Shown here: one piece after another, positions 6,001-12,000 of the stretch
Numbering within the stretch: the first letter of the stretch is position 1
Layout of the letters: the number at the start of each line of letters is the position of its first letter
From: Escherichia coli O127:H6 str. E2348/69
GTDB taxonomy: Bacteria > Pseudomonadota > Gammaproteobacteria > Enterobacterales > Enterobacteriaceae
Reading direction: 5' to 3' (one strand)
Length of the DNA stretch: 64,000 nt
NCBI RefSeq assembly: GCF_000026545.1
Contig: NC_011601.1
Position numbers: made by a program

Positions 6001-9000
6001 CACCGGCAGAAGATCCGGATATTCCGGCATCAGGATATTACGGTGCGGCATCGAGAACGAATGGAAACCAGGTATCATCAAACCGCCCGACACATTTCAG
6101 TTCATGGGCGCGCAGGAGCATTATTCCGGATCGTATGGCAACCGCTATTCTGAACGCAGCCGGGCGCACCTCAGCTTTCATCAGTGGTAAGGCACCGGAA
6201 ATCAAACCCTCGCCCGGCGGCAACACGCCATCGGGGCCGTCTGAAGATGCATCCGTACGCACAATCTCCCTGTTGCCGACAGCCGGAGAGGCTGCTGCGC
6301 AGGGCTGGACCATTAAGGACGGCGGAATTCAGTTGTCGGGTGGTGTATTTAAGATCGCCAAGCAGAGCAATAAAACCTGGTCCCTGATGCATCCGGTGGA
6401 TGACGCAGTCTCCCTGCTGACACGGGGTGGCAGACTGAGCTGTAAGTTTCGACTGTCAGGCGCACTGACCAACAACCAGTTCGGCCTGGGAATTTATCTG
6501 TATACCGATGTAGCGTTACCTGACGTCGTGGCGATGACCGGGACTGGTAACCCGTTCCTGATGTCGTTCTTCACCCAGACCACAGACGGCAAACTGAATC
6601 TGATGCATCACAAGAAAGCAGGAAACACAAAGTTGGGCGAGTTCGGGAATTACAGTAATGACTGGCAGACGCTGGAACTGGTGTTCACCGCCGGCAGTGC
6701 CACGGTTACTCCGAAACTGAATGGAGTGGCTGGCCCGGCATTCCAGGTCATAAAAGACAGTCTGACACTGGGGCTGAATGCGCTGACGCTGACGGATATT
6801 ACCAAAAATGCAGCGTATGGCGTTGAGATAGAAAGTCTGGTGCTGGAGATAAATGCACCGGCATCATCATAAAAAGTGAGCCAGCCAAATGGAAGGTATC
6901 GTTAAACTCACCGGTAGTGTCAGTGGGTCGTCTGAGATGCCTGCATGAGTTATCAGAGCCATCAGTACTTAACTGGTGGCTTTTTTTATTGTTGTCAGCT
7001 TCCGGATAACGGGAGACGGGGTATGGACCAGATGGAAAAAATCACAACAGGTGTGTCATACACCACGTCAGCGGTGGGAACGGGCTACTGGTTCCTGCAG
7101 TTGCTGGACAGGGTTTCCCCGTCTCAGTGGGCGGCAATAGGCGTGCTGGGGAGTCTGCTGTTTGGGCTGCTGACATATCTGACTAACCTGTATTTCAAAA
7201 TCAGAGAGGACCGTCGTAAGGCGGCACGGGGAGAGTAATTCAATGACTCAAAACTATGAACTGATTGTGAAAGGGATCCGCAATTTTGAGAATAAAGTTA
7301 CGGTAACTTTAGCGTTACGGGACAAAAAACGCTTTGACGGTGAAATTTTTGACCTGGACATCTCGCTGGACCGTGTTGAAGGTGCCGCGCTGGAGTTTTA
7401 TGAGGCAGCAGCCAGAAGGAGCATCAGACAGGTCTTCCTGGATGTTGCTGCCGGGTTATGTGAAGGGGATGAGCAGTCGCCGGAAAAGCGCCCCGTAATT
7501 TTAGAGGCGCAGAATGTATGGATAACCTACAAAGGAAAGCTACCGGGAAGAATTACTGGTTCTCTGAAGACTCCTCCGGAATCACAACCTTAAGTCACTG
7601 ACCGGAACAGATAAACCTGTCCGTGGGCAGAAACCGATAAATCCTGATAAATATCCATGAACGCAAAAATCAGATACGGCCTGTCGGCTGCCGTTCTGGC
7701 GCTGATTGCCGCTGGTGCGCCTGCGCCTGACATTCTCGACCAGTTTCTGGATGAAAAGGAAGGTAACCACACCACGGCATACCGTGATGGCGCGGGTATC
7801 TGGACCATCTGCCGCGGTGCCATCCTGGTGGATGGCAAACCTGTCGTTCCGGGCATGAAGTTGTCGAAGGAAAAATGCGACCGGGTTAACGCCATTGAGC
7901 GTGATAAGGCGCTGGCATGGGTGGAGAAAAACATCAAAGTGCCATTGACCGAACCCCAGAAAGCGGGGATCGCGTCATTCTGTCCGTACAACATTGGTCC
8001 CGGTAAGTGTTTCCCGTCGACGTTTTACAGACGAATTAATGCAGGTGATCGCAGGGGAGCATGCGAAGCGATTCGCTGGTGGATTAAGGACGGTGGCAGA
8101 GACTGCCGTATTCGCTCAAATAACTGTTACGGTCAGGTATTCCGTCGTGACCAGGAGAGCGCGCTGGCGTGCTGGGGAATCGACAGATAAGCAGAATATT
8201 TTGCTGAAAAATGAGGTTGGCCAACGCGGGCGGATAACACGAAGTCCTGTGAACTGGCAAAACCTAAGTGAATAAAAGTAAAAACCCCGTTTGTTGGCAG
8301 CAAGCGGGGTTTTGTTTTTATGGCAGTAAGCTATGGGAGGCTGCCTTGATTGATTTTAGCAAACTGATTAGGGAGTTGCGACTCATGATTAGTCAATTAC
8401 CAAACTGGAAATTTTTGCTGGTCTGGAGCATCCCTTTTTTATGGGTAGTATCCCAGTTAATTGTGGCAATTAAGGGGTAGCTATGTCAGACAAACTCATA
8501 ACGCCGGCAAAGGTCCTGTGTGTGATTGTCGGTATTTCATTTTCACTAATGCTGGTTGCTCTTTTTCTGTCCCTCGCCTGGGTGATGTTGTCTTCGTCGG
8601 GGCTGCTGGGGTGACAGTGACTGATGACATCAGCAGAGCGCTGGCTTTTGCTATTAAGTGGGTGGCTGTTGGTATTGCTGTGTCTCCGATGCTGTATGGG
8701 CTGGCAAAACTGGTCATTGCGCTGAAATCGTGAACTTTAAAAAGATGAGTGCTGAACTTATTCGGGCAATGGCATTTGCCATTCGTATTGTGGCCATTGC
8801 TGTTCTGGTCTGGGCAATCCGTTGGTGGTGATATGAACCGTGTTCTGTGTGTGGTGATTATTGTCATGCTGGTAGCCTGTGGTGTGCTTAGTCTGGGGCT
8901 GAATCATTACCGCGATAACGCCATCACCTACAAAGCGCAGCGCGATAAAAAAGTCAGTGAGCTGAAACTGGCGAATGCCACTATTACTGACATGCAGCAG

Positions 9001-12000
9001 CGCCAGCGAGATGTCGCTGCGCTTGATGCCAGATACACGAAGGAATTAGCCGATGCGAGAGCTGAAAATGAAACTCTGCGCGCTGATGTTGCCGCTGGTC
9101 GTAAGCGCCTGCGGGTCAACGCCACCTGCCCCGGTACCGTGCGTGAAGCCACCGGCACCTCCAGCGTGGATAATGCAACCGGCCCCCGACTGGCAGACAC
9201 CGCTGAACGGGATTATTTCATCCTCAGAGAACGGTTGATGACAATGCAGAAGCAGCTGGAAGGGGCGCAGGAATATATCCGCACTCAGTGCACTAAGCTG
9301 GCTTTTTATTATCCGGAGGATACATGAAGAAATTACGGGTAACCGTAGAACCTTTTCAGGGAACAATTCCGTTCCGTATTTTGCAGCGTGGTCGTGTTCT
9401 TGTTGAAGGTTCGTTCAGTGGTAAATGTACGCAATTACACTCCCGGACCTTTCAGGTGAATGCCACGAATGAAGAGCTAACCGTGGAGTGTACGATGAAT
9501 GCCGCTAAATGCCGCATGGTATCCGCTGCATTACAGCCAGTGTGTTGAGCGACCTTATTATCCATGCGCGGTATTGTCGCCGTATTCCTGCATTAACAGA
9601 GACCGCAGCCCGACAGGGAGACTCCTCTGCGCGAGTGTGCGGGGATAATCAAAAACGATACACACCGGGGTTTACCGCGTTAACGGAGCGCGGCGTTGTC
9701 CCCTCATAGTCGCCTGTCCGGTGCGATGGTGGAAGAAACCGAACGTTCATTTCTCGTTATTTGTCATGCTGGCCGGGCGCAGATGCGTTGCATCTGTTGC
9801 CAGCCTTCTCCTGCAGGCTTCAATAACCCACGCTGAAAAGTTACCGGACCCTTTATGCTCAAGGGCGATGTTGATCTGTTCAATTATGTGATTGGGGAAA
9901 CGGATATTGCGGGTTGTGGTTCTGCGGGTCCGGTTTTTCGATGACATATTTATTTCCTTTACTGATTGCCATATGACGGGGATTTTACATGGCTGAGCTT
10001 CGTACACTCCAGAGCAGAATCAAAACACTGAATACCCGACGGGTGAATATTCTGAAGGGGGAGCAGCGTCGTGTCAGTGGCAGTGCACGTGTTTCCCTCA
10101 AGCGTCATATCTGGCTGAGGGACGCCGGGCAGTGCTGTATCTGTGGTCGTGTGGTTGACCTCTGTGACAGTGAACTCGATCACCGAATTGCACTTCAGTT
10201 CGGTGGTGGTAATGAGGAGACGAATCTTTGGACGCTCTGTGCCGAATGCCATCGACAAAAGTCTGCTCGTGAAGCGGCGAGTGGTATGCCGGACCCGACG
10301 CTGCCGGAGGTGTCCGGAGGTAGTGGCAGAGAGGACGACATCATCGGACTGTAACCCAACCCGGGGGGGGTATCATCCGGCGTAAAAAACGATCGCTTTG
10401 GACACCGCGCCCCCTCTCACGCAGAGAAAAAATTCCCGTTTCAGGGCAGTTAACATGTTAACTGGCTGCCCGGGCATTTTTGCGGTTTTTATCTTTATTA
10501 TTCAGTTTGTTGTGCGGAAAAAATGTTAACAGGCTTTTTCAGCAAATGTTAACCGGGCAGCAGTTAACATTTGCGGCATGAGACGCCGGGAAAAATGGGC
10601 TGAACCATACCCGGCTGAGTGCGTTCTGGACCCGGGAGGAGGCTGTGCTGACAACGCAAAAACGAAAATTTGCGCTGGCGCTCATGTCCGGGAAAAACAA
10701 AACAGCGTCAGCCATTGCCGCCGGTTATTCGGCGAAGACCGCCAGGGTTAAAGGCTCGCAGCTGGCAAAAGATCCGGAGGTGCTTGCGTTTATAGCCCGT
10801 AAACAATGCGAGACGGTGGAGGTGGATGAGGTTCCTGTTTACCGGCAGAAAAAATCAGAGCAGGAGGATAAACCCCGTCGCCGTGAGGCGGCTGCAATAC
10901 CACAGCCGGACGAAAACAATCCGGAGATGCCACCGTCCGCGGTGATGTCTCCTGGTATTGAATATATGGAGGATGGTCTTCCCGATCCGGTGAAAGCCAT
11001 GGGGCGGATCCTGGTGGAAAACCTCTGCATTGATCCGAAACTGGCACTGGATGCGGCCTGGCGTCTGGCGCAGTTCACGCACCATAAAAAAGGGGATACC
11101 GGGAAAAAATCGGCAAAAGGTGATGCCGCGAAAAAAGCGGCTAACCGTTTTGCGGTGCCACCGCCACCCCGACTGGTGGTGAATAACGATAATGAGGGCA
11201 ACGGATGATACCTGTATGGAGCACAGCCTGCCCGGACTGGGCAGAGCGCCTGAAAAAGGGGCTGTCGATTATTCCGGATCCGATTTATCCGGACGAGGCC
11301 GCACATGCCCTGGCGATTTTTAAACAACTGCGGATTGTGGATGCACCTGGTAGCCCTACGTTCGGGGAGTCCTGTGCACCGTGGGTGTTTGACCTGGTGG
11401 CGGCCCTGTTTGGCTCCTACGATGCGCAGACCGGTGTACGCCATATCAAGGAAGTTTTTATCCTTATCCCCAAGAAAAACTCGAAGTCCACGCTGGCCGC
11501 GGGGATCATGATGACTGCACTGTTACTGAACTGGCGGCAGGCGGCGGGTTACACGATTCTGGCCCCGACTGTGGAGGTGGCGGCCAACGCCTTCAACCCT
11601 GCCCGGGATATGGTACGACGTGACGATGATCTGGATGACCTCTGCCAGGTACAGACCCATATCCGGACCATCACCCACCGGGTGACAGACACCACCCTGA
11701 AGGTGGTGGCAGCCGATCCGAATACGGTGTCCGGTATCAAGTCCGTGGGTACGCTGATTGATGAGTTGTGGCTGTTTGGCAAGCAGTGCAAGGCGGAGGA
11801 CATGTTACGTGAAGCCATAGGCGGCCTTGCCTCCCGCCCGGAAGGGTTTGTGGTGTATACGACCACCCAGTCGAATGAACCGCCCGCCGGGGTGTTCAGA
11901 CAGAAACTGCAGTACGCCCGGGATGTGCGCGACGGCAAAATTCATGATCCGCACTTTCTGCCGGTGATATTTGAACACCCTCCTGAAATGGTGGAAAGCG

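Follow-up and report, generated by a model that had tools for sequence, protein, structure and literature searches.

Lysis genes of a Shiga toxin phage-like prophage in Escherichia coli O127:H6 E2348/69 and their probable pinholin and SAR endolysin strategy

Which lysis strategy is encoded in the late region of a lambdoid prophage of Escherichia coli O127:H6 str. E2348/69, and does it follow the scheme of a pinholin acting together with a signal-anchor-release (SAR) endolysin? The question was addressed in a window of 64,000 nucleotides (nt) from the chromosome of this strain (contig NC_011601.1, assembly GCF_000026545.1), and all coordinates given here are those of the window. A sequence-only reading had placed a lysis cassette at 6945–9327, with a dual-start holin, a SAR-type endolysin and an Rz1 gene nested in Rz, and had considered these features consistent with a pinholin and SAR endolysin strategy. 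Positions 6880–9560 of the window were 100% identical to the chromosome of enteropathogenic E. coli O127:H6 E2348/69. Listing of open reading frames (ORFs) and direct reading revealed five genes on the + strand, namely S, ydfR, R, Rz and Rz1. Judged from sequence, the region is very probably the late-operon lysis cassette of a lambdoid prophage that resembles Shiga toxin (Stx) phages and carries nleA, nleH and nleF, and the cassette most likely works according to the paradigm of phage 21 and 933W. The genes were as follows:

7023–7238, + strand: S, long form of 71 amino acids (MDQMEK...), class II or P21-family pinholin gene, from the RefSeq start
7032–7238, + strand: S, short form of 68 amino acids from Met4, equivalent of the S21-68 pinholin in the curated annotation of phage 21
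7243–7593, + strand: ydfR (DUF1327), putative soluble accessory gene of 116 amino acids (PF07041, 7.5e-43)
7657–8190, + strand: R, predicted SAR endolysin (muramidase) of the RrrQ/933W type, 177 amino acids (PF00959, 9e-24)
8833–9327, + strand: Rz, i-spanin of 164 amino acids (PF03245, 4e-51 over residues 29–153; phrog_13)
9053–9238, + strand: Rz1, o-spanin lipoprotein precursor of 61 amino acids (PF06085, 1.7e-21)

S matched the Pfam family P21 holin S (PF04971) with an E-value of 9e-33 and 112.5 bits against a cut-off of 26, and the PHROGs calls agreed in revealing a holin, an endolysin and an Rz-like spanin. With family E-values of 1e-21 to 1e-51, these gene matches are not due to chance. 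Comparison with phage 933W (AF125520) revealed identities of 97.2% for S, 94.4% for R, 83% for Rz and 96.7% for Rz1; the corresponding values for S, R and Rz of phage H-19B (AF034975) were 94%, 96.0% and 87%, and those for S, R, Rz and Rz1 of the curated phage 21 record (OL657228) were 78.9%, 35.8%, 70% and 72%. The holins of 933W and H-19B have been placed in the P21 pinholin family (PMC10462455), and about 99% of Stx phages are reported to encode a SAR endolysin, by prediction, plus a pinholin, together with an embedded +1 Rz1 that automatic annotation overlooks (Pinto et al. 2021, PMC8136144). The membership of S in the P21 holin family, the near-identity to 933W and H-19B and the published Stx phage cassettes thus support the proposed pinholin, SAR endolysin and embedded spanin strategy, which is already known; the cassette is real but ordinary, a textbook-type module already described for Stx phages.

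The M-D-Q-M dual start noticed in the holin could be confirmed, with ATG codons at 7023 and 7032. The interval 6945–9327 held as far as its contents are concerned, S, R, Rz and Rz1 all being present, but not in its left edge or its continuity. An open frame does extend from 6945, where the maximal frame has its first ATG, to 7238, and the 26 extra codons cross a hairpin at 6955–6983; the biological start of S is the ATG at 7023, and 6945 is spurious. The block is also not contiguous, being broken by ydfR and by the distance of 642 bp between R and Rz, genes that overlap in phage 21. Several public protein entries carry the spurious S of 97 amino acids from the upstream ATG.

The second transmembrane domain (TMD2) of S keeps the motif G40xxxS44xxxG48, in the numbering of the S21 literature, and is nearly identical to TMD2 of S21. 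In a family alignment of 121 sequences (120 representatives and the query), G40, G43, S44 and G48 were invariant or conserved in at least 90%. TMD1 (residues 7–28) consists to 50% of Ala, Gly, Ser and Thr and has the positive insertion score of a weakly hydrophobic segment, membrane-insertion propensity being summed over the residue window with the scale values of Hessa et al. 2005.

The endolysin had been described as having an N-terminal hydrophobic, SAR-like segment and as not being cytoplasmic, and the analysis agreed with this description. SAR segments are characterized by one to three basic residues at the N-terminus, followed by an uncharged TMD made of small, weakly hydrophobic residues (PMC9239132). 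The N-terminus of R, MNAKIRYGLSAAVLALIAAGAPAPD, has K4 and R6 as its basic residues, after which come 18 uncharged ones (Y7–P24), 10 of which (56%) are Ala, Gly, Ser or Thr. The alignment of S and R with their phage 21 counterparts, suggested as a check, located the E-x8-D-x5-T triad of R at E35/D44/T50, positions identical to those in R of phage 21, so that both the SAR composition and a triad following the segment are found in R. The protein also matched the phage 21 lysozyme structures 3hde/3hdf (R21 3hde, 2e-16) and RrrD at approximately 1e-16. No Cys is present in the SAR segment; regulation would thus be of the non-covalent R21 type and not of the disulfide type of P1 Lyz. The closely related R of 933W has been used as a SAR endolysin: alone, it caused rounding in a small fraction of cells, and with the Mu releasin in significantly more, and release by a pinholin or by depolarisation is regarded as the definitive SAR test (PMC9239132).

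The spanin genes were found as predicted. Rz has an N-terminal TMD (residues 4–23) with a strongly negative insertion score, and its Cys99 and Cys153 align with Cys99 and Cys152 of phage 21 Rz. Rz1 lies wholly inside Rz at an offset of 220 nt, which corresponds to the +1 frame, with AAGGA 8 nt 5' of its ATG. The lipobox claimed for it was present as VVSAC in the sequence ...MLPLVVSAC20G, which agrees with the PROSITE pattern PS00013 and its positional rules at Cys20. The +2 residue is Gly, which is not an inner-membrane retention residue; 11 of the 42 mature residues are Pro, and Cys30 aligns with Cys29 of the phage 21 protein. The cysteines of Rz and Rz1 stand where lambda and phage 21 have those that serve intermolecular disulfides. 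Rz1 is unannotated in the RefSeq record of E2348/69. The N-terminus of Rz itself (8833–8880) contains LVAC with Cys16, which likewise fits the PROSITE lipoprotein pattern and positional rules and is also present in H-19B Rz. This candidate was set aside as probably a chance match because it is absent from Rz of 933W, phage 21 and lambda and its Cys lies inside a continuous TMD of 20 residues.

Besides the genes, hairpins could be predicted around S and behind R:

6955–6983, + strand: terminator-like hairpin with T-run, 12-bp stem (-17 kcal/mol, z = -4.68; none of 200 shuffled sequences reached this stability)
6999–7015, + strand: small hairpin CUUCCG-GAUAA-CGGGAG with a 6-bp stem, sequestering the GGGAG Shine-Dalgarno sequence of Met1
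8281–8313, + strand: strong terminator-like hairpin 90 nt 3' of R (-24.2 kcal/mol, z = -5.05; inverted repeat I1)

The first of these sits between the NanS-p-like esterase gene and S, within the extension of the frame to 6945. Polymerase modified by Q resists terminators; the hairpins at 6955–6983 and 8281–8313 would presumably be read through by such a polymerase, with the lysis genes insulated in the lysogen.

What the sequence shows are the identities of the genes, their frames and motifs, and how nearly they match homologues that have been characterised; export, release, hole size and timing are predicted as follows. Q-antiterminated late transcription would read past the hairpins at 6955 and 8281. 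S would act as a two-TMD pinholin, in which TMD1 exits the bilayer and TMD2 oligomerises through G40xxxS44xxxG48, producing small holes and collapse of the proton-motive force, an action suggested by its 79% identity to S21. R would be exported by Sec and remain tethered and inactive through its SAR segment until depolarisation allowed its release and refolding into the active muramidase. After loss of the wall, Rz as the inner-membrane anchor and Rz1 as the outer-membrane lipoprotein would assemble into a complex that bridges the periplasm and disrupt the outer membrane.

Some observations weigh against this reading and are given here with the alternatives that they concern. The antiholin S21-71 is defined by an additional positive charge on the longer product (PMC9636201), whereas the M-D-Q extension of the long form here is acidic, net more negative and devoid of basic residues, and so lacks a charge of the S21-71 type. 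In the functional phage H-19B, codon 1 of S reads ATA, which leaves the short form only. The long product may therefore not be an antiholin, with the dual start in the clade having MYQ, MDQ or MNQ extensions being vestigial or representing two equivalent starts, and with timing set otherwise. Approximately half of the S family clusters have no basic residue at positions 2–3 (YQ in about 35, DQ in 4 and NQ in 3, compared with KS in about 22 and YR in 13; LR was seen in 6), and MDQ differs from the MYQ of 933W by one nucleotide. However, both starts have been kept across diverged members of the family (of the 121 aligned sequences, 97 have Met1 and 115 have Met4), and the stem that occludes the Shine-Dalgarno sequence is kept 5' of S in lineages of both the 933W type and the 21 type.

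The GGGAG in question lies 7 nt 5' of the ATG at 7023. Among related loci the stem at 6999–7015 was invariant while its loop varied (GAUAA, GAUUG, AGUA), and a comparable occluding stem was seen 5' of S genes of the phage 21 type; folding of the S leader gave no significant z-score against shuffles for an sdi-like structure, and the support for the stem is its conservation. The hairpin is a candidate translational control element that would partition the two starts. Retention of Met1 and Met4, together with the stem in both lineages, suggests that this partitioning is still under selection, and it is probably still functional, while the Met1 product, lacking the extra positive charge, may or may not be an antiholin. 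A long form without antiholin function is conceivable but less likely than not.

A different doubt concerns the setting of the cassette. In RefSeq, the order of genes begins with the Q antiterminator, tRNA-Ile, tRNA-Arg, a transposase gene of ISEc13 on the opposite strand and a DUF6645/SASA esterase (NanS-p-like), continues with the class II holin, YdfR, the rrrQ lysozyme, three small hypothetical proteins and the 'lysis protein' (Rz), and proceeds after Rz to a hypothetical protein, an HNH endonuclease and the terminase. The head and tail genes further downstream are lambdoid; they are followed by nleA, nleH1-2 and nleF, which encode effectors, and finally by the trp operon. This context is that of a Stx phage late region in which an insertion sequence (IS) occupies the stx position. 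ISEc13, standing between Q and the tRNAs on one side and the esterase and S on the other, could lower late transcription (possible polarity), and this also weighs against the reading. The cassette could then be intact in sequence and yet functionally silent, as a remnant, within a defective prophage, that late transcription no longer reaches; the second ISEc13 copy and the pseudogenised integrase and tail-fibre fragments at the prophage end would fit this as well. On the other hand, the lysis ORFs are all full length and near-identical to the genes of functional phages, the head, tail and terminase genes are intact according to the annotation, and a Q-modified polymerase is resistant to terminators. 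We consider a silent cassette possible but doubtful.

Further points concern the N-terminus and the leader of R. In the best window of 17–19 residues, the insertion propensity of R was +3 to +5, compared with -3.4 for the TMD of Rz and approximately +0.2 to +0.8 for R21; the R segment is marginal as a TMD. Its hydrophobic core is short (about 13 residues) and signal-peptide-like, and no recognisable Shine-Dalgarno sequence was found in the R leader; both are points on the unfavourable side. However, H-19B, a functional phage, shares the 26 nt directly 5' of the start of R without any difference, and 28 of the last 29. R could alternatively be secreted in the conventional way, its Sec signal peptide being cleaved off, as it has an n-region (K4, R6), a short h-region (L9–A21) and A-x-A motifs. 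The close homologues in 933W, H-19B and K-12 (RrrQ) have Ser at position 22, and their AGA followed by Ser makes a good site for signal peptidase under the -3/-1 rule. In this allele, however, both of the A-x-A sites that are well placed, A19-G20-A21 and A21-P22-A23, are followed directly by Pro, and Pro at +1 is known to block signal peptidase I. The paired pinholin would be unable to release a folded enzyme, nor would an active enzyme that is freely secreted require it, and R of 933W behaves in vivo as a membrane-restrained SAR endolysin (PMC9239132). We consider conventional secretion very improbable.

A system of the lambda type, with a canonical large-hole holin and a cytoplasmic endolysin, is hardly credible at all, since the gene order S-R-Rz and the lambda-like Rz/Rz1 (by Pfam family, and with 70–72% identity to the phage 21 proteins) are outweighed by an S of the P21 class II family, not of lambda S, and by an R that is a muramidase of the T4-lysozyme fold with an N-terminal hydrophobic segment and not the lambda transglycosylase.

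The genes that interrupt the cassette were also analyzed. ydfR, located between S and R, uses the GGAGAG ribosome-binding site that is coupled to S and that in 933W is the one for R, and R follows behind a spacer of 63 nt (7594–7656). YdfR of K-12 is reported to bind RNase E at its catalytic domain and to co-purify RNA (PMC13232886, 2026). Between R and Rz, four small ORFs could be predicted:

8385–8480, + strand: p31, small hydrophobic ORF of 31 amino acids, putative single-pass membrane protein (phrog_6632, 6e-5)
8483–8614, + strand: p43, small single-TMD ORF of 43 amino acids (phrog_4906, 4.5e-21)
8611–8733, + strand: p40, small hydrophobic ORF with a GTG start, putative single-pass membrane protein (phrog_3246/1115/4493)
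8745–8831, + strand: p28, small single-TMD ORF of 28 amino acids (phrog_4493/3246)

These ORFs are tightly packed: p43 starts 2 nt after p31, the stop codon of p43 overlaps the GTG of p40 (GTGA), and p28 ends 1 nt before the ATG of Rz. The TMD propensity was weak for p31 (+1.4 to +1.9) and for p40 (+3.4 to +3.7). RefSeq leaves p31 unannotated and draws p40 from a CTG at 8578. p43 was present at full length in 276 phage records, mostly of Stx phages, directly 5' of Rz, where it is often unannotated, as in 933W; its pairwise ratio of non-synonymous to synonymous substitutions was approximately 0.3–0.45. p40 and p28 matched the same PHROG families, and p28 is a paralogue of p40. A DNA repeat search of the R–Rz spacer found only short direct repeats at chance level, the paralogy being visible at the protein and PHROG level only. 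All four ORFs belong to PHROG families listed as of unknown function, and no Pfam, NCBIfam or PADLOC match pointed to a function for them or for YdfR.

The distribution of such ORFs was compared over 121 IMG/VR loci reaching Rz, which are highly redundant isolate prophages, with small TMD ORFs detected by a composition-based ORF scan. A locus scan with the family alignment gave only close relatives with non-basic extensions, and a second scan with S21 provided the comparison group. The gap between R and Rz proved to be a mosaic hot spot, which was empty or contained one small ORF of the H-19B type, p40-p43, p31-p43-p40-p28, ant-p43 or other contents. Of the 59 cassettes whose S extension is non-basic (MYQ, MDQ or MNQ), 49 had at least one small TMD ORF in the gap, compared with about 4–5 of 62 MKSM cassettes (4 by the scan, 5 by homology to the named ORFs). 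Counted by distinct combinations of N-terminus and architecture, the contrast was much weaker (17 of 21 against 3 of 7), with exceptions in both directions, and the association may be mere linkage within one mosaic module. It is a speculative idea, to which only a small probability can be attached, that the long form of S has lost its charge-based antiholin feature in the Stx phage-like clade and that p43, p31, p40 and p28 are dedicated lysis-timing factors acting on the pinholin or on the release of the SAR endolysin in an antiholin- or releasin-like manner.

At the other end of the cassette, Rz carries a C-terminal tail of 10 amino acids that is not present in lambda, phage 21 or 933W. An ORF of 74 amino acids (phrog_2571, unknown function; region 9297–9548) begins at the Rz stop codon with an ATGA overlap, and the H-19B record reads this DNA in a different frame, which gives a longer Rz there. 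This ORF had no Pfam, NCBIfam or PADLOC match, and no bor gene follows Rz and the 74-amino-acid ORF.

Elsewhere in the window, two tRNA genes of phage type, which RefSeq gives as Ile and Arg, are located at 2730–2802 and 2896–2969, downstream of Q. The ISEc13 (IS4-like) transposase gene is present in two copies, at approximately 3111–4484 on the - strand, between the Q and tRNA region and the NanS-p-like esterase gene, and at approximately 41557–42930 on the + strand, at the boundary of the prophage with trpA. An Rfam scan revealed a match to the small RNA STnc100 (75.5 bits) at 4620–4796, between the IS and the esterase gene, and no match within the lysis cassette. The type III effector genes nleA, nleH1-2 and nleF lie near the prophage end, at approximately 33581–38270 and 43006–49666, amid pseudogenised integrase, tail-fibre and IS fragments. 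Past the prophage, the chromosomal trp operon enters the window, with the Trp leader at 49552–49645.

The value of these results lies chiefly in correct annotation, as Rz1 is absent from RefSeq and S is mis-started (97 amino acids) in some entries. The acidic extension at Met1 and the conserved small membrane ORFs near Rz bear on lysis timing in Stx-type phages, and lysis timing in turn bears on the release of toxin and of effector-carrying phages.

Among known systems, 933W and H-19B share S, R, Rz and the embedded Rz1 with the present prophage; in all of them the genes lie downstream of Q, tRNAs and a NanS-p-like esterase, and the gap between R and Rz holds inserted accessory DNA. In 933W, R follows directly after S, and ant and one p43-like ORF stand between R and Rz, whereas in the prophage of E2348/69 ydfR separates S from R, four small membrane ORFs are present, and ant, bor and stx are lacking, the IS being at the place of stx. 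Further differences at the residue level are Asp2 in place of Tyr2 in S, Pro22 in place of Ser22 in R and the 10-amino-acid tail of Rz. The Qin prophage of E. coli K-12 (essQ-ydfR-rrrQ-rzpQ/rzoQ) shares the S-ydfR-R arrangement and the RrrQ-type lysozyme; however, EssQ starts with MKSM, ydfR overlaps rrrQ, and YdfR has 103 amino acids and another C-terminus. The Qin spanin is of the DUF2514 RzpQ/RzoQ type and abuts rrrQ without small ORFs.

The likeness to lambda is confined to Rz and Rz1, which fall into the lambda Rz/Rz1 Pfam families, have the embedded +1 architecture and contain cysteines that align with the lambda-like proteins of phage 21. Lambda S is a canonical holin with three TMDs, and lambda R is a soluble transglycosylase. 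Phage 21 (OL657228), with its S21-71 antiholin, S21-68 pinholin, SAR endolysin, i-spanin and o-spanin, is the paradigm of the pinholin and SAR endolysin system. Its S extension is the basic MKS compared with MDQ here, and its four genes abut or overlap without accessory genes; the uncharged segment of R has 18 residues here against 24 in phage 21, and R has 8 Cys against 4. The likeness comprises an S of 71 codons that has Met1 and Met4, a weakly hydrophobic TMD1 and a TMD2 that is almost the same, an R with basic residues, a weakly hydrophobic segment and E35/D44/T50, and an embedded Rz1 with Cys20.

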